Of a stretch of 64,000 bases of DNA, positions 1 to 58,976 are shown in pieces (position 1 is the first letter of the stretch; each line of letters begins with the position of its first letter). The stretch is taken from positions 1-64,000 of the IMG/VR virus record IMGVR_UViG_3300042454_000021; one strand, written 5' to 3'. The DNA is from a virus. A program made the translations under genes and the position numbers. A model generated the notes under the pieces. That model saw only the letters and a program-made list of their open reading frames with translations, did no database searches and had not been told where the DNA came from.

Positions 1-296
1 TGAACGATTATCTCTACCTAACTGACCCATTGGTTCAGAAGGTTAGAATCGCTGCCTTATTCGAAGAGGATATCCCTAACGAAGTGAGATATTCAGGAGA
101 GTGTGGTGCACAAGTTACTGATGCAGAGTGGTGCTTAAATCCTTTAGATAGAGAATCGTTTTGCCCAGGGTATTTAGAAAAACAAGTATTAGAACTTACA
201 TCTCAGAAATTGTTGAGTACATACTTCAGACTTAAAGAAGACTTAACAGAAAATGGTATAGATGGTCAAGCTCCTAATGCACCAGCAGGAAGCTAA
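1..296 (+). CDS. C-terminal part of a crAss-like tail ring/structural protein (truncated by window start)
   Basis: Frame is open from base 3 (NDYLYLTDPLVQKVRIAALFEED...). It lies directly upstream of the IHF-like, ring and muzzle genes, and its stop overlaps the next ATG. Confidence 0.5.
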   Translation, partial: NDYLYLTDPLVQKVRIAALFEEDIPNEVRYSGECGAQVTDAEWCLNPLDRESFCPGYLEKQVLELTSQKLLSTYFRLKEDLTENGIDGQAPNAPAGS

Positions 297-772: not shown

Positions 773-778
773 AATAAA

Positions 779-6749: not shown

Positions 6750-6761
6750 TAATTAAAAATT

Positions 6762-31239: not shown

Positions 31240-34200
31240 ATGGACATAATTTGCTCCACTGGCGAATGCCCTGTTATATTAGATGCTCAATGCGTATTTT
31301 ACGAAGGAGCTAACCTGGTATGCACTGGTATTAATACTAACGATAATCTACAAACTGTAATACAGAAGTTAGATGCAAAAGTCTGTGAAGCCATAGGTGG
31401 AACAGGTACGTCTGGTACATCTGGTTCTAGTGGTTCTTCTGGATCTTCTGGTTCTAGTGGACAACGAGGTTCTACTGGTACAAATGGTACTTCAGGAAGC
31501 AATGGACGTAATGGAACTAATGGAACTTCAGGTTCTAGTGGACGTACAGGAACAGATGGAAGTAGTGGATCTAGTGGAACGTCAGGAAGTTCAGGTCGTG
31601 CTGGTTCTTCAGGTACCTCTGGATCTAGTGGTACTAGTGGAAGTAGTGGACGTAATGGTACGAAAGGTACATCTGGTAGCTCAGGAACAAGTGCTACATC
31701 AGGAACATCTGCAAGCTCAGGAAGCTCAGGAAGTTCTGGATCGTCTGGTAGTTCAGGAGCATCTGGAGATAGATATAGAGCATCTTCAACAAGTGAATTA
31801 ACATTAGGAGATGGTGGTACAATTACTGTTGAGCCTGGTTTATCATTTACAGAAGCACAACAAATTGTTATAACATACAATTATTTAAATTATCAAATTG
31901 CTCAGGTAATTAGTTATGTTCCAGCTACTGGAGAATTAACATTTAACGCTCCTTCTACTGTTGTAGGATCTGGAACATATTCAGTTTGGGCTGTAAACTT
32001 ACAAGGAGCAGCAGGAGGAGATGGTTCTTCAGGTACTAGTGGTTCAAGTGGTACGTCTGCTACAGCAGGTACATCAGGATCAAGTGGTTCAAGTGCTAGC
32101 TCAGGTACATCAGCTACAGCAGGAACAAATGGTACAGATGGTTCTAATGGAACATCTGGTACAGCTGGCACCAGTGGTACAGATGGATCAAATGGAACCT
32201 CAGCAACATCAGGCACAGCAGGAACTTCTGCCACTGCAGGTACATCTGGGTCTAGTGGTACATCAGGAACAGCTGGAACAGATGGTTCGAGTGGTACAAG
32301 CGCAGCAGATGGTACTATGGGTACATCAGGTACTTCTGGTAGAGATGCTACTGCTGGTACGTCAGGACGTGATGCAACGTCTGGTATTGATGGAACTAGT
32401 GGTACATCAGCTTCAAGTGGAACTTCTGGTTCTAATGGAACTAATGGATCTTCAGCTAGTTCTGGAGAAAGTGGAACATCAGGAACAAATGGTTCAAGTG
32501 GAACAACAGGAACTGATGGATCTAGTGGAACGAATGGTTCTTCTGGAACTGATGGGTCTTCAGGTACATCAGGTACGACAGGTACAGATGGATCTTCTGG
32601 CACTAGTGCAACATCTGGAACTACAGGAACTTCAGGTACATCTGCTTCTTCAGGAACTTCAGGAACCTCAGGAACAAATGGAACGTCTGGAACTACAGGA
32701 ACTGATGGTAGTTCTGGTACTTCAGCTAGTTCAGGTAGCTCAGGTACAACAGGAACTGATGGTTCAAGTGGCACAAGTGGACAAGATGCAACAGCAGGAA
32801 CATCAGGTTCTTCAGGTACTTCAGGTACTGCAGGAACATCAGCCACAGCTGGAACATCTGGATCTAGTGGAGCATCAGGTATATCAGGTGGACAGTTATA
32901 TTACTTAAATCTATCTGATACAACTATTAGCCCATTTGGATCTCCTACATATAAAGAATGGAGCCCAACCCCTTCAGGTGCTACTGAATCAACAGCAACA
33001 GTTACAGCTGGTAGTACTGCTACAGTTACTCTTGGAACCTTTGCTACAAATAGTGGAGTTCCTGGGATAACACAAATTCCTGGTGGTGTATGGGCATATT
33101 ATTTACATATAATGGCTAACCAAGCTTCAGCTAATGCTGAGGTGTATGTAGAGGTTTATAAATATACAATTGGTGCAGTATCAACATTATTGTTTACAAC
33201 AAACACAGCGTTCGTTAACTTTAATAATATTGTTCCTATACAAGTGTACACAGATGCATTCTATATAGGAGATGATGTAGTGGCTACAGATCGTTTATAT
33301 GCTATTGTTAAAATAGCTAATCTAGAAACATCATCTGTAGACTATACACTATATACAGAAGGAAGTGCTAACTATTCATATTCGCAAACTACATTCAATG
33401 CTCCTTCAGGAACATCTGGAACCTCTGGTGTAAATGCAACAGCAGGTACAAGTGGGCAAGATGCAACATCTGGTACTTCAGGAGTTAACGCAACTGCTGG
33501 TACAAGTGGTTCATCAGGTACATCAGGAGGAACAGGTGTTAATGGAACTAGTGGAACAACTGGTACTAGTGGATCAAGTGCTACTAGTGGAACTAGTGGT
33601 AGCAGCGCTTCTTCAGGAACGAGTGCATCTTCTGGAAGTTCTGGAACATCTGGTGCTACAGGAGCTAATGGTTCTTCAGGAACATCAGGAGCTAATGGCG
33701 CTTCAGGTGCTGTTGGATCTTCTGGAACTTCAGGATCTAGTGGTTTATCTAGAACAGCTGGTACATCAGGTGCCAATGGTGCTACAGGACCAACTGGACC
33801 TACTGGCCCAACAGGACCTTCAGGTACATCTAACGTGTACGCTACTGCAATGAACCAATACGTTAATACGAATAGTAACCCTACGTTTGGTACTATCTAT
33901 GCAACTGGTGAGGTGTATGCATATTATTCTGATGATCGTTTAAAGGATCGTGTTGGCGATATCAAGAACGCTACTGATAAGATTATGTCTCTAGATGCAT
34001 TCTATTATTTAGCTAATGAACTTGCTAAACAATTTGGATATAATGATAATAAGATTGAAGTAGGTTTATCTGCACAACAAATAAAAGCTGTAATGCCTGA
34101 GACTATAAACTTAGCTCCTTTTGATAGGAATCAAGATACAGGAGAATCTTTATCAGGTGAAAATTATATTACTGTTAATTACGCAAAATTAGTAACTTTG

Positions 34201-34257
34201 TTAGTAGCTGGTTTTAAAGAACAGCAAAAAGAAATTGAGGAATTAAAACGTAAATAG
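31240..34257 (+). CDS. Tail/head fibre with Gly-X-Y (GTS/GSS) repeats and a C-terminal intramolecular chaperone (peptidase S74)
   Basis: Cys-rich N-terminal anchor (CPVILDAQCVFYEG), three Gly-Thr/Ser-Ser tracts, then YSDDRLK...GLSAQ...VNYAKL and a terminal coiled coil. Confidence 0.85.
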   Translation: MDIICSTGECPVILDAQCVFYEGANLVCTGINTNDNLQTVIQKLDAKVCEAIGGTGTSGTSGSSGSSGSSGSSGQRGSTGTNGTSGSNGRNGTNGTSGSSGRTGTDGSSGSSGTSGSSGRAGSSGTSGSSGTSGSSGRNGTKGTSGSSGTSATSGTSASSGSSGSSGSSGSSGASGDRYRASSTSELTLGDGGTITVEPGLSFTEAQQIVITYNYLNYQIAQVISYVPATGELTFNAPSTVVGSGTYSVWAVNLQGAAGGDGSSGTSGSSGTSATAGTSGSSGSSASSGTSATAGTNGTDGSNGTSGTAGTSGTDGSNGTSATSGTAGTSATAGTSGSSGTSGTAGTDGSSGTSAADGTMGTSGTSGRDATAGTSGRDATSGIDGTSGTSASSGTSGSNGTNGSSASSGESGTSGTNGSSGTTGTDGSSGTNGSSGTDGSSGTSGTTGTDGSSGTSATSGTTGTSGTSASSGTSGTSGTNGTSGTTGTDGSSGTSASSGSSGTTGTDGSSGTSGQDATAGTSGSSGTSGTAGTSATAGTSGSSGASGISGGQLYYLNLSDTTISPFGSPTYKEWSPTPSGATESTATVTAGSTATVTLGTFATNSGVPGITQIPGGVWAYYLHIMANQASANAEVYVEVYKYTIGAVSTLLFTTNTAFVNFNNIVPIQVYTDAFYIGDDVVATDRLYAIVKIANLETSSVDYTLYTEGSANYSYSQTTFNAPSGTSGTSGVNATAGTSGQDATSGTSGVNATAGTSGSSGTSGGTGVNGTSGTTGTSGSSATSGTSGSSASSGTSASSGSSGTSGATGANGSSGTSGANGASGAVGSSGTSGSSGLSRTAGTSGANGATGPTGPTGPTGPSGTSNVYATAMNQYVNTNSNPTFGTIYATGEVYAYYSDDRLKDRVGDIKNATDKIMSLDAFYYLANELAKQFGYNDNKIEVGLSAQQIKAVMPETINLAPFDRNQDTGESLSGENYITVNYAKLVTLLVAGFKEQQKEIEELKRK

Positions 34258-35258: not shown

Positions 35259-35262
35259 CATT

Positions 35263-35748
35263 ATGGCACATTTTGCAGAAATTGACGAAGAAACATACAA
35301 GGTTTTAAATGTAATAGTTGTACCAGATGAACAAGAACATAGGGGACAAGAATATTTAGCTGAAGATTGTAGGTTAGGTGGTATGTGGGTTCAAACATCA
35401 TATAATACAAGGTGTGGAGTTCATTATAAACCTAACTCATTTGAGCCTAGTGGTAAACCAGCATTTAGAAAAAACTATGCTAAGATAGGAGGATACTATG
35501 ATCCAATAGCTGATGGATTTTATTCAGAAAAGCCTGTAGACAATCCATCATTTATATTGGATCCTGATACATTTATTTGGGTACCTCCTGTTCCCTTTCC
35601 AAAAAAATTACCTGAAGGTTTAGATCAATTTAGTAATTATGCTTATATTTGGGACGAATCTCAACTACAGTGGTTTTTAGTAAAATCAGAATCATTTGGA
35701 TTTGAAAATGAGTATCTTAAAAATAAATTTGAAAAATCAAATATATAA
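35263..35748 (+). CDS. Conserved phage fibre-associated protein (MAHFAE family)
   Basis: MAHFAEIDE...VIVV...WVQTSYN...FRKNYA.IG..YD...W..PVP.P, a family usually found next to glycine-rich fibre genes. Start placed at the internal ATG 35263. Confidence 0.65.
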   Translation: MAHFAEIDEETYKVLNVIVVPDEQEHRGQEYLAEDCRLGGMWVQTSYNTRCGVHYKPNSFEPSGKPAFRKNYAKIGGYYDPIADGFYSEKPVDNPSFILDPDTFIWVPPVPFPKKLPEGLDQFSNYAYIWDESQLQWFLVKSESFGFENEYLKNKFEKSNI

Positions 35749-35775
35749 GATAAATTAAACCAACAAACTAAATAT

Positions 35776-37401
35776 ATGGAAAATGAAGAACAAATTGGAC
35801 CTATGGGTCCATTAGATTCTTTACATGAACAAAGTAAAGAAACAACATTTAACTTTGTAATTGTAGGAGGAGGTACAGCAGGATGGATGACTGCATTGTT
35901 CTTAAAAAAATATTATCCTTGGACAAATGTTACAGTATTAGCTAGTGCTGAAATTGGCATTTTAGGAGCTGGAGAAGGAACGACTCCTCACTTTATCAGT
36001 TTTATGGATCACATAGGTATCCCTGCTTCTGATATTGTAAAGCATGCAAAAGGAACGATTAAGAGTGGTATTAAATTTACTAATTGGAATGGAGATGATT
36101 CCTCATACTTTCATCCATTTTTTGAAAATTTAAATATAAATGTATTTAGAACAAACGATGCAACTAATTCTAATGGTGGAGGTCCCTCTACTTTAGTTTT
36201 AGAAAATATTTCTAAAGGTGAATCATTAGATGATATTTTATTTAGTGCTAATTCATCAAAAAGAAATCTAGTTAACTTTTCTCCATCTATAAATATAGGC
36301 AATAAGGATAAAAATCCAATCAGCCATTTTGATTCATTATCTACTTTTGGTATGCACTTTGATGCTAGGCTATTAGCCAAACATCTAAAGAAGACTGCTA
36401 TGTATGCTGGAGTTAAATATGTTGAGTCTGAACTTGATGAAGTTATAACTAACGAAGAAGATGGATCGATAAAACAAATTAAAACAAAACGTGGTGATAC
36501 ATTGCCTTCTAATTTTGTATTTGATTGTAGTGGATTTAATAGACTGATTATTGGTAAGCATTTTAATAGTGAATGGGAATCCTATTCAGATAGTTTACCA
36601 ATGAAGCGAGCTCTTCCATTTGTTATTCCTAATGAAACTAGTGATGTACCTCCATACACTGAATCAATAGCATTGAAATATGGTTGGATGTGGAGGATAC
36701 CTGTCGATGGTCGTTTTGGTTGTGGGTATGTTTTTGATTCTGATTTTATTTCAGATGAACAAGCAATGGATGAGATCAAAGAACAGTTTGGAAATGATAT
36801 AGAGTTTGGAAAACCATTTACATATGAAGCTGGACGATATAAAGAAACATGGATTAAGAACTGTATAGCTATTGGATTATCATCTGGATTCATTGAACCA
36901 TTAGAAGCTACATCTATATGGACTATTATTACAGCATTGAATGAATACCTTGTTAATAATTTAGGAGCTATAGCTAAAAATAAGTTCTATATTGATAGAT
37001 TTAACAATCAGATTAATAAGTTTCATGATGATACTAAAGATTTTATTTATCTACATTATTTAACAAAACGAGAAGACTCTGAGTTTTGGAAAACATTTAA
37101 AGAGAAAAATAAAATCACTGATAATATTAAAAAATATTTAGAGGAGTGCAAAGAAACTATACCTAACTCTAAGTTCTTGTCAACAATAAACAGTGCATAC
37201 GATATAACTAGTTTTCATGTAATAACAAATGGACTAGGTTTATTCAATCGTCAAAAAGCATTTGAACTTTTAGAAGCTAGTAGAAGTGATATTCGTAGAG
37301 AAGAATTCTTTACAAATACCATTAGCTTTAAAAGAAACGTGTTGTTAAATCTAACAACATTGCAAGATCATAATGAATTCTTACAATATCTAAAGATGTA
37401 A
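35776..37401 (+). CDS. Flavin-dependent (tryptophan-halogenase family) halogenase
   Basis: GGGTAG FAD motif, GEGTTP, catalytic Lys in GTIKSGIKF, YFHPF, FVFDCSGF, WMWRIP (WxWxIP) and FIEPLEATSI. Confidence 0.9.
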   Translation: MENEEQIGPMGPLDSLHEQSKETTFNFVIVGGGTAGWMTALFLKKYYPWTNVTVLASAEIGILGAGEGTTPHFISFMDHIGIPASDIVKHAKGTIKSGIKFTNWNGDDSSYFHPFFENLNINVFRTNDATNSNGGGPSTLVLENISKGESLDDILFSANSSKRNLVNFSPSINIGNKDKNPISHFDSLSTFGMHFDARLLAKHLKKTAMYAGVKYVESELDEVITNEEDGSIKQIKTKRGDTLPSNFVFDCSGFNRLIIGKHFNSEWESYSDSLPMKRALPFVIPNETSDVPPYTESIALKYGWMWRIPVDGRFGCGYVFDSDFISDEQAMDEIKEQFGNDIEFGKPFTYEAGRYKETWIKNCIAIGLSSGFIEPLEATSIWTIITALNEYLVNNLGAIAKNKFYIDRFNNQINKFHDDTKDFIYLHYLTKREDSEFWKTFKEKNKITDNIKKYLEECKETIPNSKFLSTINSAYDITSFHVITNGLGLFNRQKAFELLEASRSDIRREEFFTNTISFKRNVLLNLTTLQDHNEFLQYLKM

Positions 37402-37404
37402 CTT

Positions 37405-37947
37405 ATGCTTGATAAAGTATATTTTGGAGGCACTTATGCATATAAGAATTTTATCAATGATGATGAGCGTTTAGAACTAGAGGAATGGATATTATCTAAA
37501 AAAGAATTAATGACTTTCTCTAGACCTATAAATTCTGAAGAAGATCAATATACCCCTGGATTAAAACGTCATTTCAAAGTGTTACATCCTGATGACGAGA
37601 AACCAGAAATATTTCATAGGGTAAGAAATAAATTATTAGATTTAGAAAACATAACAAACCCTCTTCCTGCACCTGGTAATCTTGATTGGATTGGTATTGT
37701 AGGAGAAGGCGCATACGTTGAGCCTCACTGCGACGCTAACTTTCCTAATTATTATACTGTCAGATATAATTTATTAGTATCTTTTCCAGATGCTGGTGGT
37801 AGACCTATATATGGTGATGAGATTCTTCCAGTAGAAGAAAAGATGTTATGGAGATGTGATGCTGGAATAGTTAAACATTCTTCAGAAATAGTTAAAGGTG
37901 ATAAGTTAAGGATTAATTTATCATATGGTTTTTCATTTGAATTTTAA
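37405..37947 (+). CDS. 2OG-Fe(II) oxygenase
   Basis: HCD...H facial triad (EPHCD; KHSS) and a distal R (LRINLSYG). Confidence 0.75.
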   Translation: MLDKVYFGGTYAYKNFINDDERLELEEWILSKKELMTFSRPINSEEDQYTPGLKRHFKVLHPDDEKPEIFHRVRNKLLDLENITNPLPAPGNLDWIGIVGEGAYVEPHCDANFPNYYTVRYNLLVSFPDAGGRPIYGDEILPVEEKMLWRCDAGIVKHSSEIVKGDKLRINLSYGFSFEF

Positions 37948-37955
37948 TAAACATA

Positions 37956-38543
37956 ATGGAATTAAAATTAGTATTTCCTGTACACAGTCAAAGTAATCCT
38001 TTAGGATTTTATGTATATAATGATTGTTTTACAGAAGAAGAATTAGGATGGATAGGTAACCTACAAAAATTATATGACGTACAGAAAGCATCAACTGGTT
38101 TTGGTGAGGATGAGGATGATATAAGGAAGTCAGATGTGAAATGGTTACATCATGATGATAAGACATATTGGTTATATAATCGTTTATCAAACGTTGCTAT
38201 GTTAGCTAATAAAGAAACATGGCAATTTGACATCCCTTCAATTTTAGATTCTATTCAATATACACAGTATTATGATGATGGGGGACATTACGATTGGCAT
38301 ATGGACAATGGTCCTTATCCTATGAATACAAGAAAGATTAGTATTACTGTTCAACTATCTGATCCTAACGATTATGAAGGTGGAGTGTTAGAATTAAATG
38401 TAGGGAATACAATAGTTCAAATGCCTAAAGAGAAAGGATGCGCTGTATTATTCCCTAGTTATATGTTACATAGAGTTACACCAGTAACAAAAGGGGTACG
38501 TAAAAGTCTTGTTCTTTGGGTGGGTGGTACAACTTTTAAATAA
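37956..38543 (+). CDS. 2OG-Fe(II) oxygenase (PKHD/prolyl-hydroxylase-like)
   Basis: YDWHMD, RKIS, DYEGG and FPSYMLHRVTPVTKGVRKSLV. Confidence 0.9.
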   Translation: MELKLVFPVHSQSNPLGFYVYNDCFTEEELGWIGNLQKLYDVQKASTGFGEDEDDIRKSDVKWLHHDDKTYWLYNRLSNVAMLANKETWQFDIPSILDSIQYTQYYDDGGHYDWHMDNGPYPMNTRKISITVQLSDPNDYEGGVLELNVGNTIVQMPKEKGCAVLFPSYMLHRVTPVTKGVRKSLVLWVGGTTFK

Positions 38544-38544
38544 T

Positions 38545-39132
38545 ATGGATTTTATATATAGAAAAAATAACTTCTTATCATCAGACATGTGTAATGATTT
38601 TATTACTATGTTTGAATCTTCTCCATTACGTAAGAGAGGATGTATTGCTACAAAAAATAAGATTGCTATTGAGGTTGATTATATAAAACAATCTACAGAC
38701 ATTACCTTTTGGCCTGACTTTTTAGATAACGAAGAGAATAAAAAAGAGTGGGGAGAACTAATATCTAAGTTTCAACGTAAGCTACAATTTGAAATTGATA
38801 ACTATGTTGAGAAATATGAGACTTTAGAAAACATGGATAGGTTTGTTTTAGAAGGTTATAATATGCAAAAATATGAACCTACTGAAGGCTTTCATCAATG
38901 GCATTGTGAAAGAGGAAATCCTAGTACAGCACAAAGGATGTTAGTCTTCATGGTGTATTTAAATGATCTTGATGATGGTGGAACTGAATTTAAATATCAA
39001 GAGCACACTGAGAAAGCAGAGGAAGGTAAATTATTAATATGGCCTACAGATTGGACTCACACACATCGTGGACAAATAAGTAAAACAGAAACTAAATATA
39101 TTTTAACAGGTTGGTATTCTTTTAAACCATAA
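38545..39132 (+). CDS. 2OG-Fe(II) oxygenase (prolyl 4-hydroxylase-like)
   Basis: WHCE, RMLVFMVYLND..GGTEF, WPTDWTHTHRG and KYILTGW. Start at ATG 38545. Confidence 0.9.
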   Translation: MDFIYRKNNFLSSDMCNDFITMFESSPLRKRGCIATKNKIAIEVDYIKQSTDITFWPDFLDNEENKKEWGELISKFQRKLQFEIDNYVEKYETLENMDRFVLEGYNMQKYEPTEGFHQWHCERGNPSTAQRMLVFMVYLNDLDDGGTEFKYQEHTEKAEEGKLLIWPTDWTHTHRGQISKTETKYILTGWYSFKP

Positions 39133-39133
39133 T

Positions 39134-39751
39134 ATGAAAGTTACAAGTAGCTTTAATAACTATTTAGTTATAGATGATTTTCTAAAAGAGGATGAATTAA
39201 AAAACGTTTGGTTAGAATTAGACTTCTTAACTAATAAATCTATAATGCTACCTCCTGAGAAATCTAGTAGTGCTAGGGATACATTAACTAACGTAATATT
39301 AAAAAAGAATAATGTTATATTTCTAGATGATGTATATCAAAACAGAGAGACATCACATATATTTAATGTATTTCAAAAATTACGTGGGGAAGAATTAACT
39401 GATATCATAGAAGATCTACCTCATGAATTTAAATATTTTAAATACATAGGACATGATCGTACATTTATTAGTTACTATGAGGATAGTGATTACTATAAAC
39501 CTCATGTTGATCAAGCAGTTTTAACATGTTTATATTGGTGTAATAAATCTCCAAAATCATTTGAAGGAGGTAATTTAACAATAGGTGATGAACAAACACA
39601 AATTGAATATAAGAATAACAGATTAGTTATATTCCCATCTTATAATATACATTCAGTAGATGTTATAAAGATGGCAGAAGATAACATACCATTTTCAGGA
39701 TGGGGAAGATATACAATAACTAAATTTTTATTTGTTAACCCTAAACCTTAA
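39134..39751 (+). CDS. 2OG-Fe(II) oxygenase
   Basis: YYKPHVD, FEGG, NNRLVIFPS..HSV and GRYTI. Confidence 0.88.
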   Translation: MKVTSSFNNYLVIDDFLKEDELKNVWLELDFLTNKSIMLPPEKSSSARDTLTNVILKKNNVIFLDDVYQNRETSHIFNVFQKLRGEELTDIIEDLPHEFKYFKYIGHDRTFISYYEDSDYYKPHVDQAVLTCLYWCNKSPKSFEGGNLTIGDEQTQIEYKNNRLVIFPSYNIHSVDVIKMAEDNIPFSGWGRYTITKFLFVNPKP

Positions 39752-40090
39752 ATGATGATCTATCCTATAGTATTTATAATTTACTTATTAGTTTTATATT
39801 ACTTAATAGGTAATGTAAAGATTATAGATAGATACAAGATGTATCTTTCAAAAGAATATTGGACAGACTACAATAGTATTGAGGCAGCTGCATGGTTGGC
39901 TAAAGCTGTCATCATTATCCCTGGACTTATATTTGGTGTAGAGATATGGTGGTTACACTTCTTGACATTAGCTACATCATCAGCTTTGATATGGGCTAGT
40001 ATGAGAAAGAGCCTACCTACATTGATTGCTTTTAACACTATCTGGATATGTATATCTTTAACAATTATAACTAGACACTTACTACTGTAA
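39752..40090 (+). CDS. Small integral membrane protein (about 4 TM) within the oxygenase cluster
   Basis: 112 aa, almost entirely hydrophobic segments, translationally coupled on both sides. Confidence 0.65.
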   Translation: MMIYPIVFIIYLLVLYYLIGNVKIIDRYKMYLSKEYWTDYNSIEAAAWLAKAVIIIPGLIFGVEIWWLHFLTLATSSALIWASMRKSLPTLIAFNTIWICISLTIITRHLLL

Positions 40091-40683
40091 TGCTAATTAG
40101 ACCAACATTTGAAGCCAACCCAGAGTTTCGTCAGATAACTCCATATCATATCGCTAATGCCTTTACACAAGAGGAGTTAGAGTGGATAGGTAATTTACAA
40201 CAACTATACCCTTATCAAGATGCTAGTATAGGTGGAGATGAAACATCCCAACTAGATGAGTCTATTAGAAAGTCTAGAATAAAATGGATACATCATGATG
40301 ATAAATCATGGTGGGTGTATGATAAGTTAGTTAAACACATAGAAGAGGCAAACAAAACATGGGGCTTTGCAATCAATTCTATCATTGATTCTATTCAATA
40401 TACAGAATACTATGAAGGTGGTGGTCACTATGACTGGCACATGGACGTAGGAAATCATCCAATGAACAATAGAAAGATTAGTGTAACAATACAACTATCT
40501 TCTCCTGATGATTATGAAGGAGGCGATCTTGAGTTTTGGGTGGGAAGAACTCCAGATAAAGCACCTAGAGAACATTTGTTAGCAATCCTATTCCCTAGTT
40601 ATCTAATGCACAGAGTGACACCAATAACTAAGGGAGTAAGAAAGTCTTTAGTTGTTTGGGTAGGAGGGGATACATTTAGATAG
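40090..40683 (+). CDS. 2OG-Fe(II) oxygenase, paralogue of 37956..38543
   Basis: YDWHMD, RKIS, DYEGG and FPSYLMHRVTPITKGVRKSLV. Confidence 0.9.
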   Translation: MLIRPTFEANPEFRQITPYHIANAFTQEELEWIGNLQQLYPYQDASIGGDETSQLDESIRKSRIKWIHHDDKSWWVYDKLVKHIEEANKTWGFAINSIIDSIQYTEYYEGGGHYDWHMDVGNHPMNNRKISVTIQLSSPDDYEGGDLEFWVGRTPDKAPREHLLAILFPSYLMHRVTPITKGVRKSLVVWVGGDTFR

Positions 40684-41736
40684 TACATCCTCTACAGAGA
40701 TTGTCTTATGACACTCATGTTGTCTAGGAGTATCTTCATGTTCAGGACACCAGTTCCAATCTCCCTTATTAAATCTAAACTTAGGATTGTTCCAACATCC
40801 ATTACATACGCTTCTGTTCTCTATACGTATACAATCAAACTCATGATTAGCTTCAGTGAAGTTTGCTATCATTGCTACCTTCACTTCCATAGCCCAAGCT
40901 AACCAGCTAAGCCCACTACTAAGTCCTATGTACACCTCACAGCTAGCAAGGATATCCATAATGTTTTCTAATGATTGATCTTGTGGTCTATGTACATTCT
41001 TTAAATCACAATCATCTTTAGAGAGTTCGTATACATCGTAGCCTAAAGTTATAAGTGTGTCTATAAGTTCTTGCCATTTGTCCCAAAGTTTTAGTTGTGC
41101 TGTAGACTTTACACTAATACATATATGTTTCTTGTCAGACTTAAAAGCCTTAGGTTTATAAGCTAACCTTGGTCTCATCTCTTTATATGAAAGATTCAAG
41201 ATATCTGTAGCTGATTGTTGTAATGGTATCGTGACAGGATTGTTAGGCTCCTTGTCTTTATCCCAGAACCATCCCAGCTGTGGCATAGCTATAATATTCT
41301 CAACTGTAGATCCTGGTTCAATAAACTCTAGTTCAGGATATGCATCTTTAAACAAAAAGTTTTTGAATGTTGACACAATAACTTTGCACTGGTAACGTTG
41401 TTGAAATTCTAATACGTAAGGCATCCATGCTATGGTGTCACCTAATGCTGCGCTATCAAAGCTAATGAATACACGTTTCCCTTTAAGATGATGTAAGAAA
41501 CTGATACGTTGTTTTAATACACCTTTATCATTTCTAATCTCTACAAAGAAGTTACCAATGTAACGTTTACTGCACTTCATCCACATGCCTTTCTTCAGGA
41601 CATCTTTATAGATTTCTGTACGTACGCCATTACGTTCTTCAACAAACGCACACTGATACTCTTTATCATCATAGCTATCTACTAATTCAAAGTAGAGACC
41701 ATCAATATTATATAGTTTAAAATCCATAATAGGCAT
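40648..41736 (-). CDS. Autotransporter strand-loop-strand O-heptosyltransferase (Aah/TibC, BAHT family)-like
   Basis: ALGDTIAWMPY, STFKN.LF...YPELEF, STAQLKLW, IGLSSGLSWLAW and the Fe-finger cysteines CNGCWN...DWNWCP.H....ECHKTI. Confidence 0.85.
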   Translation of the reverse strand: MPIMDFKLYNIDGLYFELVDSYDDKEYQCAFVEERNGVRTEIYKDVLKKGMWMKCSKRYIGNFFVEIRNDKGVLKQRISFLHHLKGKRVFISFDSAALGDTIAWMPYVLEFQQRYQCKVIVSTFKNFLFKDAYPELEFIEPGSTVENIIAMPQLGWFWDKDKEPNNPVTIPLQQSATDILNLSYKEMRPRLAYKPKAFKSDKKHICISVKSTAQLKLWDKWQELIDTLITLGYDVYELSKDDCDLKNVHRPQDQSLENIMDILASCEVYIGLSSGLSWLAWAMEVKVAMIANFTEANHEFDCIRIENRSVCNGCWNNPKFRFNKGDWNWCPEHEDTPRQHECHKTISVEDVLSKCIPSYPNN

Positions 41737-42727
41737 TTAGATATGCATTGGTTGTATCTTCACTAGTCCATTTCTGATTAATTATACTAACAGCATCATA
41801 GAATTTCTTTAATATCTTACATACTTGTAACCAGCTATGATCTTGACGTTTTATTAATTGTTCATTTCTCATAGCCCCATACTTATTACATACAGTTTGT
41901 ATACCTGTAACTACAGCTTGTGTTGTATTCTCTGGAAGATTATACATACCAGGTAGAGTGACATTAGATGTACCAACAATTGGTAACCCACAACTCATTG
42001 CTTCTAGTATAGAGAGATTAGGATGTCCATACTCTAAGAATGATGGAGCTAAGAAAAGTGTATGATCTTGATATAACTTAAGAGTTTCATCATCTGTAGG
42101 ATTTGTTAACTTTAAAGTTAACTTTTTATAATCCAAAAGATCTTTATGTCCTTCAAAGAATGCATTGTTATTCTCAGGACCAGCAATAGTTATAGGAAGA
42201 TTAAGTCTTTGAGCTGCCTCTATTCCCCATCTAAATCCTTTTCTATCAATTGTACAATCACCTGCTAATCCATTGTTAGCTATCATCAATAAACTATGAT
42301 CTGTAGTAGTTTCTATAGATGGTTTGAAGAAGTCTGTGTTAACGCCATGTGGAAGATAGAACAACTTATCTGTACCATCAAAGTAATCAATGATGTGTTT
42401 ACTATGACATATAGATATAACAGATCCTTTAATAGCTGCTAAGTTATCCTTATACACACCACTATCTTTACCATACCATTCAGCATGATGATCATGTAGT
42501 GAGTAGATGTATGGTATATCTTTGTCACGCATGTCAATAGCTGTGTTAGCCATGTGTACATGAGCTAACATGTTTGGTTCTTTAACTACTTCATTCCAGT
42601 TTTTAATCTCTACGTCTACATCTAATAGTTTTAAGTTAGTAGTGTATTCCCAGATGATACGTTCTACAGCACCCCAACCATTAGGTGGGATGGTGATAAG
42701 TCCTGTTGCTACTTGTACAATTTTCAT
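41717..42727 (-). CDS. GT-B glycosyltransferase (family 4)
   Basis: IPPNGWGAVE, PHGVNTDFF, RKGF and E.GHPNLSILEAMSCGLPIVGT. Confidence 0.88.
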   Translation of the reverse strand: MKIVQVATGLITIPPNGWGAVERIIWEYTTNLKLLDVDVEIKNWNEVVKEPNMLAHVHMANTAIDMRDKDIPYIYSLHDHHAEWYGKDSGVYKDNLAAIKGSVISICHSKHIIDYFDGTDKLFYLPHGVNTDFFKPSIETTTDHSLLMIANNGLAGDCTIDRKGFRWGIEAAQRLNLPITIAGPENNNAFFEGHKDLLDYKKLTLKLTNPTDDETLKLYQDHTLFLAPSFLEYGHPNLSILEAMSCGLPIVGTSNVTLPGMYNLPENTTQAVVTGIQTVCNKYGAMRNEQLIKRQDHSWLQVCKILKKFYDAVSIINQKWTSEDTTNAYLNAYYGF

Positions 42728-45366
42728 TTCTTTATGAATTCTTTATGTTGTTTGTCAATCAATGAATAACCATCTGCCTGTGTTGTAAGTCTTTTATGTA
42801 CAATTCCCATATCATAAGAACTGCTATAAAATATTTGGTTAAAATACATATCAGCTGCGTCCCATTTACTTAAACGCAGTTTTTCCTTTAAAAAGTTACT
42901 GACATAAGAAGGGAACATAATGCATTGTAATCCTATTAAATGATCTGTAACATACATATCTTCATCTACCTCTCTCACTACAGGACTCTGTGGCCATGCA
43001 AACTCTAATGTATCTTTGTCTCCAAAAGACATAAAGCCTATGTTGTTTTTTTCCAACATTAACGCACATTTTTCCACTTTGTGTATGAAATTTCCAACAT
43101 CTCCTTCAATTAAACAATCTCCCTCACAGACTATTATGTATTCGCAGTCATGCATTTCAGCCAATATGGCATTTTTGAATGCTTCATAGCAACCATAGTG
43201 TGCTGGCGTAAGCGCTGTGCTTCGCTCTCTGACTGTAGCCTCATCGAATAACTCCATTGAGATTGCTTGTGGTCTGTTACAGTTATGCTGGGGTGGAAGG
43301 CTGGCATAAGGGATATTCTGGTGGAGGATATACTCCCATCCATAAGCTTTGACTTCTTGTAATGAAGCTCTAGATAATCGTTCTCGTTCATCATTTAATG
43401 TAGTTTGAATGTGTACTAATTTAATTGTAGGTCTGTTCTTATTTGCATTTGCCATTTGCTTTAAAATAATAGTTCCATCATGTTCATATCCATCTAGGAT
43501 ATATAACTCTTCTTTTATTGTCGTCCATTGATCCACTATAAATAACTCTACTGTCTTGACATCATCAGGGATAGGTAACACTAATGTTTGTTTCTCTGAT
43601 AGAGTTATGGATGCAGCTGTAGTAGTATCACTATCATCAAATACAACTTCTATAACTCTATGATCATTATTGTATGAATGGAAATAGAATACATTCTGAC
43701 CAGATATTTGTTCCTTTAGTATTCCATAATACTCACTGTTAGAAGACGTACCATGCCCACTGTGCTCTAGAAAAGTTTCCATATTTGGATACTCTACCCA
43801 CACCCCATTAGTCTTCTGCACCTTCTTCATCATGTAATCTTCTAAGAAGTTCTGAGCTCCTATAGATTCACATAGTTTATTATACTCTTCTGGTGTACGT
43901 ACATCATCTAATAGCTTACCTACAAAGTCTGTATTGAAGAACATACCATTGGTTTGTATACCCTTACCAAATGGTGTATTCAATGTAGCTAGTACAGCTT
44001 GCCATTCACTAGTTAATTTACTAAACCCATTATAGATAGCAGGGAAGTCCTTTTCATCTAGCTCTATATCAAATGTTACATAGAACATCTTATTGAACCC
44101 AAATGCTTTGGCTGCCTTACCTGCATTAATCAAGTTAGTTAGAACAGTGAGAGACTGGTTACTATTTCCAGTTATCTTCATCTCCACCTTAGCTTGTTCA
44201 TCTTCACGATAGAATCTATTGTAGTAGCTATGATGTGTCAAAGGATTGTGTTGATCATAGATGTAATAGTCTACCATTTCCTGTATCTTCTTAGGTACAG
44301 GATAATGACTCACTAACATGATTGGTCTATCCAACTTCTTAGCGCTATTGATGCAATCTATAGTTAGCTTAATCCTGGCATCAGTGTTTGGATAGGTGCC
44401 TATAACAATAAGCTGGTTATTCTTCTCTTGTAGGTTTAATATTTTTCTCATATTTATACTATCAGTATAACTATCGCCACTTAAATAAACTACATCTCTA
44501 TAGTCATCATACTTATTACAATATACATCTAGATTAAACATCATCTTAGGGATGTGTGGATACTCTAGCGCTTCTTTAATAGCTATTGGATTGAGCTCTT
44601 TGTTACCTCTATCTCCTCTAGATGTAAACAAGAACATGTCACAATCTTTTATAAAACTACTAACCCTATCTGATTCTCCATGTACTATACAGTTCTCAGG
44701 AAGATCTTCCATTAATGGTTTCCAATAGCTCTCAAAGTTACCAGCTTGATTACCTAAGAAGTGAAACTTTATATTGTAGTTTATAAGATGTCTAGCTATC
44801 TCTATAGCATAGGCTTGATTCTTACGTGGTGTCCACAGTCCCACTATACAAACGTCAAGGTATTGCTTTACTTTTGGTTCCCTTTTGTCAAGCTTTAGAT
44901 TGACAGGATATTCAATAACTTCCATAGGTACATCCAAGTGAGCATACTTGAAGATGTTATAAGCACTAACAAATACAAAGCTATCAGGCATCCATCTTTT
45001 CTCACTAGGAGGAAATGAACTATCATGTGTAGTTTCTACAATACGATATGTTCTGTCTTCACTATATATTTCTCTAGTTAAATCATTATCCATAAACATC
45101 TCAGGAAACTCTTCCATAGAGATGACATCTGGATTGAAGGTATCGATAAAATCTAAAAGCTCTCTTTTGTTTTCTCCTAGAGATTTAAAGTTGTTTCCAA
45201 TCAAAGTTTGTACCTTCTTGCGCTGTACAACAAAGTTCCATGCAAGAAATGCATATTCCACCACCATGATTTCATAGTGGTCTCGTAACAATTTTACCTT
45301 ATTTAATGTTACCTGGGGTGCTCCTCCTGTACTAAAGTGTGGAGATATAATTAATAGCTTCTTCAT
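42724..45366 (-). CDS. Multidomain glycosyltransferase (N-terminal GT4-like, central GT-A-like, C-terminal GT25-like)
   Basis: PHFSTGGAPQ, VGLWTPRKNQ and ELNPIAIKEA; central LVSHYP...VDYYIYD...FDIE; C-terminal HYGCYEAF...CEGD. Confidence 0.75.
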   Translation of the reverse strand: MKKLLIISPHFSTGGAPQVTLNKVKLLRDHYEIMVVEYAFLAWNFVVQRKKVQTLIGNNFKSLGENKRELLDFIDTFNPDVISMEEFPEMFMDNDLTREIYSEDRTYRIVETTHDSSFPPSEKRWMPDSFVFVSAYNIFKYAHLDVPMEVIEYPVNLKLDKREPKVKQYLDVCIVGLWTPRKNQAYAIEIARHLINYNIKFHFLGNQAGNFESYWKPLMEDLPENCIVHGESDRVSSFIKDCDMFLFTSRGDRGNKELNPIAIKEALEYPHIPKMMFNLDVYCNKYDDYRDVVYLSGDSYTDSINMRKILNLQEKNNQLIVIGTYPNTDARIKLTIDCINSAKKLDRPIMLVSHYPVPKKIQEMVDYYIYDQHNPLTHHSYYNRFYREDEQAKVEMKITGNSNQSLTVLTNLINAGKAAKAFGFNKMFYVTFDIELDEKDFPAIYNGFSKLTSEWQAVLATLNTPFGKGIQTNGMFFNTDFVGKLLDDVRTPEEYNKLCESIGAQNFLEDYMMKKVQKTNGVWVEYPNMETFLEHSGHGTSSNSEYYGILKEQISGQNVFYFHSYNNDHRVIEVVFDDSDTTTAASITLSEKQTLVLPIPDDVKTVELFIVDQWTTIKEELYILDGYEHDGTIILKQMANANKNRPTIKLVHIQTTLNDERERLSRASLQEVKAYGWEYILHQNIPYASLPPQHNCNRPQAISMELFDEATVRERSTALTPAHYGCYEAFKNAILAEMHDCEYIIVCEGDCLIEGDVGNFIHKVEKCALMLEKNNIGFMSFGDKDTLEFAWPQSPVVREVDEDMYVTDHLIGLQCIMFPSYVSNFLKEKLRLSKWDAADMYFNQIFYSSSYDMGIVHKRLTTQADGYSLIDKQHKEFIKK

Positions 45367-46291
45367 AAACTTGATCTACTTCTGGATGACAATAAAACTT
45401 ATCTTTATTTTCAAGGCAACCTATTAAAGGTTGTACGCCTTGTACAGATCCCCACTCCTTAACTCCATATTTCATATCAGAACAACATTGTAGTGCGCAT
45501 GTACCAGCTACATACTTGTAGTTATGATACTGACCATGCACTGTTCTGTATGGAGCTCTGAAGTTAGGATTGAGTGACGAACCCAAGTGTATAATGGGAG
45601 TATTTGTAGTGCCAGCGAGATGTAACAATCCACTGTCCATAGTTATAAAACATGATGCATTATGTATAAGGTGATAACAATCTGATATAGATGTCTGATT
45701 CATTAGATTCATACCATGAGGTATGTCAAAATTAAATACAGGTTTGTCAACATTAAAGAAGCCAGTCTCACTGCTATCTTTACCAATACTAATGACATAA
45801 AACCCTGCATCATTAAGATGCTTAACAAGCTCCATCCATTTCTCAGCAGGCCATGTTCTATTAGGCCACGTACTTACAGGATGTATAAGTATATACTTAT
45901 GGGGTATATCAAATCTATTTGGTTCTATAGGACTGTATTCACAATACAACTCATATCTATCCAACATGAACCCTAATTGTATAGCATGATACTGACGTAT
46001 GTCGATAGTATTATGTTTCATTTCCACTCCTTTTTCATTCTTCTTACCTACATTGGTGAAGGAGTTATGCATAATGAAGTGTTCATTGAAATATTCCCAA
46101 TCGATTGACGTGGACTTGTAACTATTTTGTACGTATGGATTCTTTTTGAACAGCTCTGGTATAGGACTAACCACAGTTATATTCTGTTCATAGGCTCTAG
46201 ATAGTTTTCTTATAGTGGGCGTAGCACATATAAGATCTCCTAGAGCAGGACATTCACTAAGGTTTAGACAAATTGGTTTAGTAGTTGACAT
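45332..46291 (-). CDS. GT9 heptosyltransferase-like glycosyltransferase
   Basis: ALGDLICATP, LFKKNPYV, IHPVSTWPNRTW, MDSGLLHLAGTT and a Cys-rich C-terminus. Confidence 0.85.
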   Translation of the reverse strand: MSTTKPICLNLSECPALGDLICATPTIRKLSRAYEQNITVVSPIPELFKKNPYVQNSYKSTSIDWEYFNEHFIMHNSFTNVGKKNEKGVEMKHNTIDIRQYHAIQLGFMLDRYELYCEYSPIEPNRFDIPHKYILIHPVSTWPNRTWPAEKWMELVKHLNDAGFYVISIGKDSSETGFFNVDKPVFNFDIPHGMNLMNQTSISDCYHLIHNASCFITMDSGLLHLAGTTNTPIIHLGSSLNPNFRAPYRTVHGQYHNYKYVAGTCALQCCSDMKYGVKEWGSVQGVQPLIGCLENKDKFYCHPEVDQVYEEAINYISTL

Positions 46292-46775
46292 AGTATCCAT
46301 ATTTATCATCGCCATATAATAATTTCAATGATGGATATCTACTAGCCATCTTATTGTATGTTAGATCTGGTTGATGATGTGTTTCGTGAATATTACCATA
46401 CTCTTCACCTTGCTCATATAAATAAGGTACAGCAATCAAACACTTCTTACCCAATGCATTAATCTTATCAATTAATGGTATTGCATTATCTAGTGTTAGA
46501 TGTTCTAATACATCTCCTAAGATTAGGTAATTGTAGGGATGAATATCAAACTTACATATGTCTTCTAAGAATACATTATCATAAAGATCTTGTAAATTAA
46601 ACTGATGAATGTAAGGTTCGTAAATTTCAACAGCATCTAAATGACATAGACCTTTTAACATCCTACCATAAGTGCCTGATCCAGGACCTACATCTAAGAC
46701 TTTAAAATCTTTATTTACTACAGAGAGTAAATGCTGTTCTACCTCTTCTTTAAATAGTGAGTAACTATAAGGCAT
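46278..46775 (-). CDS. Class I SAM-dependent methyltransferase
   Basis: VLDVGPGSG, DAVEI and GDVLEH. Start at MPYSYS (46775). Confidence 0.85.
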   Translation of the reverse strand: MPYSYSLFKEEVEQHLLSVVNKDFKVLDVGPGSGTYGRMLKGLCHLDAVEIYEPYIHQFNLQDLYDNVFLEDICKFDIHPYNYLILGDVLEHLTLDNAIPLIDKINALGKKCLIAVPYLYEQGEEYGNIHETHHQPDLTYNKMASRYPSLKLLYGDDKYGYYVNY

Positions 46776-46792
46776 ACTTTTGTTGGTTTGGT

Positions 46793-46823
46793 CAAAGTTA
46801 ATTATATTTACACAAAAATACAA
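46793..46823 (-). promoter_or_regulatory. Bacteroidota sigma-type promoter of the glycosyltransferase operon
   Basis: On the minus strand: TTG (46823-46821), a 20-nt spacer, then TAACTTTG (46800-46793), 17 nt before ATG 46775. Confidence 0.7.
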
Positions 46824-46828
46824 GAGCT

Positions 46829-47197
46829 ATGTTAATAGATGTTAGTACAGGAGAAGTGGCTGATAAGATCAGCATTCTCGTTATTAAGAATGATAAGATC
46901 AAAGATACAACTCAGTTAGCTAATGTTCAAAAAGAACTTAGCGCATTAGTAGAATCATTCCCTGCAGAAATCTTAATTGATAAGTTGTACACTGAGTTAT
47001 GTAATATAAACTATCAGCTTTGGCGTATAGAAGATAACATCAGAGAGAAGGAACGATTGGGCGAGTTTGATGCTGAGTTTATACAGATGGCACGTGATGT
47101 CTACTTCACAAATGATAGAAGAGCATTCATTAAAAAAGAAATAAATATTAAGTATGGATCAGATATTATAGAAGAAAAATCATATAACCCATATTAG
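46829..47197 (+). CDS. DUF6165-like protein
   Basis: VSTGEVADKISILVIK...LWRIEDNIR...F..MARDVYFTNDRRAFIKKEIN..YGS.IIEEKSY. Confidence 0.8.
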   Translation: MLIDVSTGEVADKISILVIKNDKIKDTTQLANVQKELSALVESFPAEILIDKLYTELCNINYQLWRIEDNIREKERLGEFDAEFIQMARDVYFTNDRRAFIKKEINIKYGSDIIEEKSYNPY

Positions 47198-51560: not shown

Positions 51561-52772
51561 ATGGCTATACCATCTAGACAAATAGGTTGGGGAACAGAGG
51601 AAAATCTGTTATGGCAAATCTCTAAGCAATTAGAGTATTTGTCAGGCATTACATACAATAGTGGTGGAGGATCAGGTTCAGGAACAAGTGGTTCCTCAGG
51701 AACTAGTGGTGGATCAGGTACTTCAGGATCAGCAGGTACTGCTGGATTAAGTGGATCTTCAGGAAGCTCAGGCGTAGCAGGTACATCTGGTTTATCTGGT
51801 GATAGATATAAAACAGAATCTGTTACAGAGTTTACATTAGGAACTGGTGGAACTATAACTGTAGGTACAGGTTTATCATACACTACAGCCCAAGACATCA
51901 TTATATCATATGATTCTACTCATCATCAAGTATCGATGGTTACATCATATGATTCTGGTACAGGTATATTAGTATTTGGTGCACCTTCAGAAACTACAGG
52001 AACAGGAGCATACAGTGACTGGACAGTTAACCTTAATGGTGCTGCAGGTGGTAATGGAACTAATGGAACGTCTGGATCTGCTGGAACAAGTGGACTATCA
52101 GGAACATCAGGTGTTGCTGGTACGTCAGGCTCTGCTGGTACTTCAGGTGCTACAGGAACTAATGGGTCCTCAGGAACTTCTGCATCTAGTGGCACAGCTG
52201 GTACAGCTGGTGTAGCTGGAACTGCAGGTACGTCTGGCACAAGTAGTGGTCCTACTACATCTTATGGTTTATTTGCTCAAACAGCTGATAGTACACCTGT
52301 AACTGCTACTACTGTAGAAACAACAATAGTAGGACCAGGAGTGGGTGGATTATCTGTTCCTGCAAATGGATTCTCTATTGGAGATTCTTTTACTTGTTTA
52401 TTAGATGGTCAGATGTCTTGTACAAGTTCATCAACAGTACATATTCGTGTTAAAACATTATCAGGAGCACTTCTTGCTGATACTGGTATAATTGACTTGG
52501 CTGCTGCAACTAATAAAGCTTGGATAATGAATTTGTATTTTACAATTAGAACATTAGGAGGAGCTGGTACTGCATCACTTTCATCTGGAGGATTGTTTTC
52601 TTACATTAGAAATGGAGGAACTCAGTTTGAAGGATATAATTTAAGTACAGTTAATACCACTACGTTTGACACTACAATAAGTAACACATTGGTAATCACT
52701 GCACAATGGGATAGTAATAGTGTAGATAATTCAATAATTTCTCGAAACTTTACATTAACTAAAGTTTACTAA
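51561..52772 (+). CDS. Fibre/decoration protein with GTS repeats
   Basis: MAIPSRQIGW N-terminal anchor, Gly-X-Y Ser/Thr tracts, a ~90-aa module shared with the 31240 fibre, and a beta-rich C-terminal head. Confidence 0.65.
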   Translation: MAIPSRQIGWGTEENLLWQISKQLEYLSGITYNSGGGSGSGTSGSSGTSGGSGTSGSAGTAGLSGSSGSSGVAGTSGLSGDRYKTESVTEFTLGTGGTITVGTGLSYTTAQDIIISYDSTHHQVSMVTSYDSGTGILVFGAPSETTGTGAYSDWTVNLNGAAGGNGTNGTSGSAGTSGLSGTSGVAGTSGSAGTSGATGTNGSSGTSASSGTAGTAGVAGTAGTSGTSSGPTTSYGLFAQTADSTPVTATTVETTIVGPGVGGLSVPANGFSIGDSFTCLLDGQMSCTSSSTVHIRVKTLSGALLADTGIIDLAAATNKAWIMNLYFTIRTLGGAGTASLSSGGLFSYIRNGGTQFEGYNLSTVNTTTFDTTISNTLVITAQWDSNSVDNSIISRNFTLTKVY

Positions 52773-58943: not shown

Positions 58944-58976
58944 AAAAAGGGAACCATTTGGCTCCCTTTTTCTTTT
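58944..58976. terminator. Bidirectional intrinsic terminator
   Basis: AAAAAGGGA-A-CCA-TT-TGG-C-TCCCTTTTT between convergent gene blocks. Confidence 0.8.

Follow-up and report, generated by a model that had tools for sequence, protein, structure and literature searches.

We propose that a five-gene operon of an uncultured lake phage directs cytoplasmic, stepwise O-glycosylation of the phage's own collagen-like fibres, a reading that we consider reasonably probable from comparative sequence analysis. The operon (hereafter the cassette) lies on the minus strand of the window analysed here, i.e. the first 64 kb of the 112,925-bp IMG/VR record IMGVR_UViG_3300042454_000021, which is judged to be 98% complete; its core gene encodes a 362-aa relative of the protein glycosyltransferases TibC and Aah, and the proposed acceptors are the two fibres encoded at 31240 and 51561.

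The 362-aa protein is a true TibC homologue: it scores 224.9 bits against TIGR04414 over residues 42–354 (223.8 bits in the genome search), above the curated equivalog cut-off of 200; its sole sequence matches among solved structures are to TibC (4RAP, E 1.5e-38); and its AlphaFold model (AF2; 24 homologues, predicted local distance difference test (pLDDT) 88) superimposes on TibC (4RB4/4RAP) with Z 34.2 and a root-mean-square deviation (rmsd) of 3.2 over 349 aligned residues (model residues 3–361), the next-best structural match being a GT9 enzyme at Z 19. As the superposition starts at residue 3, the N-terminal β-barrel is present, and the modelled architecture is that of TibC throughout: N-terminal β-barrel, GT-B catalytic core and four-Cys finger. 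We transferred the residue roles reported for TibC (PMC4358343) through a HMMER alignment and scored conservation across 60 distinct phage sequences. The catalytic Asp-110 of TibC and its phosphate/sugar donor contacts Thr-226, Lys-230 and Trp-305 (PMC4358343) correspond to Asp-100, Thr-212, Lys-216 and Trp-278, all invariant in 60 of 60 sequences; equally invariant are Cys-311, Cys-314, Cys-330 and Cys-342, which align to the iron-finger residues Cys-339, Cys-342, Cys-358 and Cys-370 of TibC and form a predicted iron finger, in keeping with the Fe-finger cysteines that a first-pass annotation of this DNA had pointed out.

The phage enzyme departs from TibC at positions that bear on donor choice and assembly. 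TibC Arg-286 hydrogen-bonds adenine N1, the stated basis of ADP-sugar use (PMC4358343); its counterpart is Ile-259 here and Thr (29 sequences), Val (17), Ala (6), Ile (3), Arg (2) or Lys (1) across the clade, a gap adjoining the position, with the alignment possibly off by one or two residues and the segment itself free of any Arg or Lys. The position of TibC Pro-300, which sets heptose stereoselectivity (PMC4358343), is Ser, as in Aah, in 56 of the 60 sequences. About ten residues are deleted in the HMMER alignment over TibC 263–282, and model residues 238–255 contain no hairpin; in TibC, a β-hairpin thumb (Phe-265/Val-266) joins dimers into a dodecameric ring (PMC4358343). Because the thumb is absent, the dodecamer mechanism is unlikely to apply. 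The first-pass annotation had called the enzyme an Aah/TibC-like protein O-heptosyltransferase: the family assignment stands on profile score and fold, whereas the heptosyl specificity is unproven, with Arg-286 replaced, no heptose-pathway gene found in the phage's lineage and a probable Bacteroidota host, so that neither "heptosyltransferase" nor "dodecameric" should be carried over as a name.

The portal protein of the phage is ~25% identical to portals of crAss-like phages by sequence comparison, and the hosts named for those crAss-like records are almost all Bacteroidota (Bacteroides, Flavobacterium, Cellulophaga, Azobacteroides); the sequence evidence makes a host in the Bacteroidota likely. 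A genome_contigs scan with the TibC-like enzyme gave no host clue, returning just four distant matches (Nitrosotalea, Trinickia). Four families of nucleotide-sugar synthesis, CTP_transf_like, SIS_2, NTP_transferase and Epimerase, are absent from the whole 112,925-bp genome, which extends the earlier remark that no such genes are found in the window; heptose-1-phosphate adenylyltransferase (TIGR02199) is absent from nine genomes of the phage's lineage, from the cultured Microcystis phage Mel-JY01 and from the megaphages discussed below, and gives sub-threshold matches in three unrelated large phages. As no tested nucleotide-sugar-synthesis gene is present, the donors must be host nucleotide sugars, and the missing Arg-286 together with the probable Bacteroidota host makes ADP-heptose a doubtful candidate at best.

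Both Ser-rich fibres reported in the first-pass annotation exist, and what was overlooked is their collagen-like nature. The long fibre has 131 Gly-X-Y triplets, with Thr (62) or Ser (40) at X and Ser (81), Asn, Thr or Asp at Y; it matches PF01391 over 7 stretches (E 7.1e-56), contains just 19 Pro in its 1005 residues, and ends in a C-terminal Peptidase_S74 domain, an intramolecular chaperone typical of trimeric fibres. The short fibre has 36 Gly-X-Y triplets in two blocks, with Thr or Ser at X and Ser or Ala at Y. We take both to be collagen-like proteins with predicted triple-helix repeats. TibC glycosylates Ser, not Thr, accepts synthetic peptides and has a mapped site, QNS-GG, in which Ser precedes Gly; the same Ser-then-Gly context is found in the fibre triplets.

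Our comparison within the phage's lineage, defined as portal-protein relatives (356 contigs) and narrowed to 13 genomes at least 93% complete, links the enzyme to this type of collagen. Ser/Thr-collagen DNA, scored as (GGN WSN WSN)x5 matches, occurs in all ten enzyme-bearing genomes (3–223 matches each) and in none of the three enzyme-less ones (Fisher p 0.0035). The enzyme-less genomes (G001, G004 and G005) fall in two separately supported clades of the portal tree, and at least two events are therefore needed. Compared as whole genomes, all three lack the entire 13-kb block 34260–47197, i.e. a Gly-rich protein, a halogenase-like gene, four 2-oxoglutarate (2OG) oxygenases, the five-gene cassette and the DUF6165 gene next to it. 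Their long fibre retains tblastn similarity only over ~47–51 aa at its start and continues as a 1338–2550-aa protein with no Gly-X-Y run. The short-fibre orthologue is present in two of the three (G004 and G005), where its collagen blocks consist of Gly-Pro-Gln, Gly-Ile-Gln and Gly-Glu-Gln, not Gly-Thr-Ser, while one end is kept: the C-terminal 169 aa in G004 (51%) and the N-terminal 33 aa in G005 (91%). The phage also encodes a second, unannotated glycosyltransferase (53212–54228, plus strand) that is retained at 67–70% identity in the cassette-less relatives; the co-variation is therefore specific to the TibC-like cassette, and the phage seems to have two independent glycosylation systems. 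As a separate observation, the conserved ~47–51-aa start of the long fibre (31240–31380) is 59–66% identical in G001, G004 and G005 and looks like a tail-attachment adaptor with swappable distal parts.

The pairing extends well outside this lineage. Close relatives of the TibC-like enzyme occur on at least 120 IMG/VR contigs. In 56 of 81 loci, a collagen-like open reading frame (ORF) lies no more than 10 kb from the enzyme gene, as a rule in convergent orientation and directly downstream; most of these 56 ORFs have at least 65% Ser/Thr at the X/Y positions. The pairing is also present in Mel-JY01 and in a 735-kb megaphage. For a test in the reverse direction, the sole criterion for choosing IMG/VR records was a run of seven Gly-[S/T-type]-[S/T-type] codon triplets, with seven consecutive Gly-Pro-X triplets as the control: a TIGR04414 match was found in 22 of 72 Ser/Thr-collagen records (20 above the cut-off) vs. 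none of 48 Gly-Pro-X records (p 4e-6). Among Ser/Thr-collagen records at least 80% complete, 7 of 12 carry the enzyme, and the enzyme-bearing genomes include some of 66, 73, 166, 170, 249, 299 and 548 kb. More than 2,100 metagenome homologues are found at E≤1e-5, the best 120 listed all being 50–94% identical to the phage enzyme, and the JGI pipeline already gives these proteins the TIGR04414 name; only 4 of 50,697 GenBank phage records encode a TibC-like enzyme.

The Mel-JY01 record (L083, PP395634.1) contains, at 2–3049 on the plus strand, a 1016-residue open frame with ~200 Gly-X-Y triplets and 79% Ser/Thr, just upstream of a 1226-aa "methyltransferase FkbM" protein (4750–8430) whose C-terminus is a TibC-like domain. 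The GenBank annotation places other, shorter ORFs over this frame (739–2298, minus strand; 2519–3052, plus strand), and the collagen-like fibre looks mis-annotated.

The remaining four proteins of the cassette are three glycosyltransferases and a methyltransferase-like protein. The 327-aa protein belongs to GT9 (PF01075, 5.6e-19; 68.9 bits vs. a gathering score of 22), as had been suggested; it reaches no lipopolysaccharide (LPS)-heptosyltransferase equivalog (TIGR02195, 47 bits vs. 134.6; TIGR04414, 46 bits), has the LGD motif, lacks the N-terminal barrel, and shares 24% identity in its C-lobe with the TibC-like enzyme. A GT9 gene is present in 43 of 80 related loci. Its C-terminus (45332–45500, minus strand) is a Cys-rich tail of the form C-x4-CC ... 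C ... C, which could be a metal finger analogous to that of TibC. The 336-aa protein was correctly called a GT4 enzyme (PF13692, 1.3e-9; PF00534, 3.2e-6) and also matches PHROG glycosyltransferase families. For the 165-aa protein, the methyltransferase assignment is partly borne out: its own Methyltransf_23 score (16 bits) is below the gathering threshold of 27, but it has the motif VLDVGPGSG, and 31.9–33.8 bits are reached by its orthologues (50–53% identical), which in other phages form one protein with the TibC-like enzyme; a weak match in the Protein Data Bank (PDB) is to 3cc8, a putative methyltransferase. The gene is optional, as the two closest relatives (L003, L005) do without it.

The 880-aa protein, previously described as a multidomain glycosyltransferase, resolves into three transferase domains, a number that had been missed. 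Residues ~1–290 are a GT4-like GT-B domain (PF00534, 2.1e-7, residues 160–268), and an AF2 model of residues 290–880 (18 orthologues, pLDDT 75) shows a GT-A fold at ~315–543, a β-sandwich, and a second GT-A fold at ~640–880 that carries a C-E-G-D-C motif invariant in the orthologue conservation profile. The protein has no PDB sequence match, and its middle and C-terminal parts have no Pfam match at E≤5. In Foldseek, residues 290–880 place human LH3 and COLGALT1 and Mimivirus R699 first (~1e-10 to 1e-8; the top two ~4e-10), and in the VIA alignment COLGALT1 spans both GT-A domains (Z 14.5, 386 residues, rmsd 12); however, single-domain matches such as GnT-I (Z 14.4), PBCV-1 A64R (Z 13.6) and POMGNT1 tie with it (Z 13.5–14.4). 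Membership of the GT25/COLGALT1-type family was not adopted, as generic GT-A enzymes score equally; the model is better read as generic GT-A domains whose tandem layout resembles that of collagen glycosyltransferases.

The operon thus offers up to six transferase domains, a number that suggests a product longer than one sugar, i.e. an oligosaccharide. Fusions in other phages join the same parts in other combinations: methyltransferase, unknown region, 880-aa-type GT-B and TibC-like domain (~1140 aa); GT-B and TibC-like domain (~700 aa); GT4 and TibC-like domain (701 aa, in L032–L040); and forms with added FkbM methyltransferases. The TibC-like domain is constant among them, and the remaining parts are interchangeable.

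In the mechanism that we propose, the TibC-like enzyme would attach the first sugar to Ser (perhaps Thr) of the Gly-Thr/Ser-Ser triplets of both fibres, before or during fibre trimerisation; the GT9, GT4 and three-domain enzymes would then add further sugars, and the small, optional methyltransferase would methylate one of them, the roles in extension and capping being suggested by domain types and fusions only. The resulting glycans would coat the fibre surface. As the repeats are nearly Pro-free, the hydration and stability that Pro/hydroxyproline or charge pairs give elsewhere probably come from the glycans here, and the switch in collagen composition suggests a glycan that is more than decoration and may take the place of proline in keeping the helix stable or hydrated, by analogy with what has been proposed for BclA (PMC8968730). 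A bolder version, which we offer tentatively and regard as rather doubtful, is an obligate "glyco-collagen", in which Pro-free Gly-Thr/Ser-Ser chains would depend for a stable triple helix on dense O-glycosylation, initiated by a TibC relative that has no thumb, is not dodecameric and uses a donor other than ADP-heptose, and lineages would switch between this and Gly-Pro-Gln collagen by gain or loss of the cassette.

The first-pass proposal that the fibres are the acceptors has thus gained strong comparative support (10/10 vs. 0/3 genomes, 22/72 vs. 0/48 records, the composition switch and the fusions), but several points weigh against it. All of the evidence is comparative rather than an observation of glycan on the fibres themselves. 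The enzyme is thumb-less, collagen chains differ greatly from the β-helix on which TibC acts, and Thr is a residue that TibC does not modify; with Thr, Val, Ala or Ile at the Arg-286 position of the phage clade, the donor chemistry may differ as well. The 636-kb megaphage LR756504 has the enzyme and no Ser/Thr collagen ORF within 20 kb, and 5 of the 12 near-complete Ser/Thr-collagen records (~40%) have no TibC-like gene, from which it follows that the repeats are not strictly dependent on it. Finally, fibres and cassette lie within ~20 kb of each other in this lineage, so the co-variation could in part be that of one recombination module.

The strongest of the alternatives, which we nevertheless consider unlikely, is that the cassette glycosylates other virion parts, such as globular or β-structured fibre regions, the Gly-rich tip protein at 34260 or the poly-Thr/Ser tails of other structural proteins. 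The natural substrate of TibC is a folded β-helix, recognised through ring and iron finger (PMC4358343), and the block 34260–47197 comes and goes as a unit, so that non-collagen neighbours co-vary too. Near the enzyme, however, Gly_rich_2 and the halogenase each occur in only 3 of 80 loci, compared with 56 of 81 for collagen-like ORFs, most of them rich in Ser/Thr; the poly-Thr-tail genes persist, as does the transferase at 53212, in cassette-less relatives; and the short-fibre orthologues change their collagen composition with loss of the cassette, each keeping one terminal non-collagen segment.

Still less probable is remodelling of host LPS, capsule or a surface protein, for example as a superinfection block or an aid to release. 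The classical role of GT9 enzymes is heptose transfer to the LPS core, surface polysaccharides are common products of GT4 and GT-A enzymes, and the operon, inverted relative to its neighbours and with its own promoter, has a moron-like layout; yet the ORFs scanned in and around the cassette gave no Pfam/NCBIfam match to a flippase, a polyprenol-phosphate or other lipid-carrier transferase, a ligase or an oligosaccharyltransferase (these were not sought genome-wide), and a carrier-free pathway is the best-supported reading. To our knowledge, the characterised TibC/Aah members all glycosylate proteins, and we know of no DNA substrate for the family. A host target would also leave unexplained why the link to Ser/Thr collagen recurs in several phage lineages, vs. 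0 of 48 Gly-Pro-X records.

Slightly lower again we place the idea that the enzymes are inactive or that the association is hitch-hiking, the Ser/Thr composition reflecting flexibility or low nitrogen cost: the enzyme-less 5 of 12 records and the lack of direct evidence of sugar fit it, but invariant catalytic and donor-binding residues in 60 diverged sequences, the abundance of metagenome homologues and independent fusions that hold the domains together do not. Glycosylation of phage DNA (hypermodified bases) to evade restriction is very improbable, as the operon lies in the fibre region and not in the replication module, its core enzyme belongs to a family with no DNA substrate known to us, none of the ORFs scanned within or next to the cassette matches a base-hydroxymethylase, and the co-variation with fibre composition would go unexplained; what it has in its favour is a dUTPase and other nucleotide genes farther along the window, and the frequent glycosylation of hydroxymethylated bases by phage GT-B/GT-A enzymes (PMC12619734).

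The setting of the cassette accords with glycosylation of the fibres. All five ORFs of the operon reported in the first-pass annotation were found where it had placed them (40648–46775; 40648–46823 as ORFs), in the tail-fibre region and embedded in a plus-strand structural block; GC skew changes sign over them, and consecutive genes overlap by 38, 35, 4 and 20 nt, which points to a single translationally coupled operon. The claim that the operon has its own promoter also gains support, although not from the octamer count alone. The 53-nt gap upstream contains TAACTTTG, 17 nt ahead of the ATG at 46775; the octamer occurs 10 times in the window vs. 5.1 expected, which is not above chance. Of 36 orthologous loci, however, 23 have a TAnnTTTG box in the 80 nt that precede the first cassette gene, compared with 5.4% of random 80-nt windows, and this conservation supports a real Bacteroidota-type promoter. 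Scans for sigma-70 promoters and terminators returned fewer sites than in shuffled sequence, with no sigma-70 signal above chance. A homologue of the divergently transcribed DUF6165 gene adjoins the cassette in 44 of 80 related loci, and both are missing together from G001, G004 and G005; its product may be an accessory part of the cassette. Megablast of the region against GenBank phages gave no match, and no PHROGs family covers the TibC-like, GT9, 880-aa or methyltransferase proteins. The coordinates are collected in Table 1.

Table 1. Cassette, candidate promoter, neighbouring gene and fibre genes in the 64-kb window.
Feature	Position	Strand	Basis or remark
Class-I S-adenosylmethionine (SAM) methyltransferase-like protein, 165 aa	46278..46775 (ORF 46278-46823, ATG 46775)	-	first operon gene
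GT9-family glycosyltransferase, 327 aa	45332..46315	-	PF01075
Three-domain glycosyltransferase, 880 aa	42724..45366	-	PF00534 + AF2 model
GT4-type GT-B glycosyltransferase, 336 aa	41717..42727	-	PF13692, PF00534
TibC/Aah-family protein O-glycosyltransferase, 362 aa	40648..41736	-	TIGR04414, TibC structure match
TAACTTTG, candidate Bacteroidota-type -7 promoter box	46793..46800	-	17 nt 5' of first ATG
DUF6165 protein, 122 aa, divergently transcribed	46829..47197	+	PF19662 at 1.2e-9
Long tail fibre, 1005 aa, collagen-like	31240..34257	+	PF01391 7e-56; S74 chaperone PF13884 4.8e-8
Short fibre, 403 aa, collagen-like	51561..52772	+	PF01391 5.4e-11

Several other genes of the window are of interest in their own right. 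Within 35776–40683 (plus strand), a halogenase-like gene (tryptophan-halogenase; phrog_2928, 1e-106) is followed by four paralogous 2OG-Fe(II) oxygenases of the prolyl-hydroxylase type (PF13640) at 37956, 38509, 39134 and 40090, the last of which overlaps the 3′ end of the TibC-like gene; near the enzyme elsewhere, an oxygenase occurs in 21 of 80 loci and a halogenase in 3 of 80. A third sugar cluster (58975–60894, minus strand) lies on the early strand and adjoins dUTPase and RecA genes; it encodes a 250-aa GT2 enzyme (PF00535, 4.7e-12), a 217-aa methyltransferase-like protein (weak) and a 178-aa GT2-like ORF (weak), with a weak match in G001 and none in G004 or G005. The structural block also contains a single ORF of 3914 aa (14343–26087, plus strand), whose syntenic counterparts are 3720 aa in G004 and 5004 aa in G005.

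The closest known systems are the TibC-TibA and Aah-AIDA-I pairs of E. coli (bacterial autotransporter heptosyltransferases, BAHT; PMC4358343), with which the phage enzyme shares its whole-protein fold, catalytic Asp and Thr/Lys/Trp contacts; there, too, a cytoplasmic enzyme hyperglycosylates Ser of a long, repetitive surface protein encoded nearby, as we propose for the phage. The phage system differs in that it is phage-encoded, with fibre genes and other transferases as neighbours and no autotransporter in the window; in its likely acceptor, a collagen-like Gly-X-Y chain rather than a β-helix; and in an enzyme that lacks the thumb, has Arg-286 replaced, and stands among, or is fused to, other glycosyltransferase domains and a methyltransferase.

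Glycosylated collagen-like proteins are known from BclA of Bacillus anthracis/cereus and from the BclA3-SgtA system of Clostridioides difficile spores (PMC8968730, PMC7157674). As in our proposal, Thr/Ser of the triplets are O-glycosylated there by dedicated cytoplasmic transferases, methylated sugars are possible (PMC8968730, PMC7157674), and the BclA glycan is thought to aid the hydration network of the helix (PMC8968730); in contrast, the BclA triplets are mostly Gly-Pro-Thr, whereas the phage fibres are nearly without Pro, and the BclA transferases belong to families unrelated to TibC and serve a spore surface, not a virion. Mycobacteriophages Che8, Corndog and Myrna (Freeman et al. 2023, as cited in PMC12619734) decorate structural proteins in the cytoplasm with their own glycosyltransferases, as proposed here; their sugars are carried by the C-termini of capsid and tail-tube subunits rather than by collagen-like fibres, their enzymes come from other families with no TibC-like member, and their glycans have been shown experimentally, whereas the evidence here is comparative only. 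Human COLGALT1 and LH3 and Mimivirus R699 (9EVJ, 6FXR, 9DYT) share the tandem GT-A domains and are the best whole-model matches to residues 290–880 of the 880-aa protein; identity is 8–10%, however, with an rmsd of 12–20 Å owing to different domain orientation, and these enzymes act on hydroxylysine, which the phage fibres lack.

A search of the literature on phage TibC or heptosyltransferase enzymes and on glycosylated collagen-like tail fibres found no paper describing the system, and the roles known to us for TibC/Aah enzymes are all in support of proteobacterial adhesins. The enzyme type has a large clade in environmental phages. New from this window are the loss-and-replacement comparison in one lineage, the Gly-Pro-X control, the anatomy of the 880-aa protein and the conservation of the promoter box. 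As the cultured phage Mel-JY01 carries the pairing of enzyme and fibre, the idea is directly testable.

In conclusion, if the clade is indeed tied to Pro-free collagen-like fibres, the TibC family would gain a second substrate class, there would be a mode of virion glycosylation that is widespread beyond the mycobacteriophages, and the fibres would provide a natural test of collagen helix stabilisation without proline; the obligate form of the proposal, if true, would mean that collagen can be stabilised in a new manner and that the family has a new class of acceptor. Fibre glycans would bear on host recognition, on protease protection, and on the design of recombinant collagen materials.

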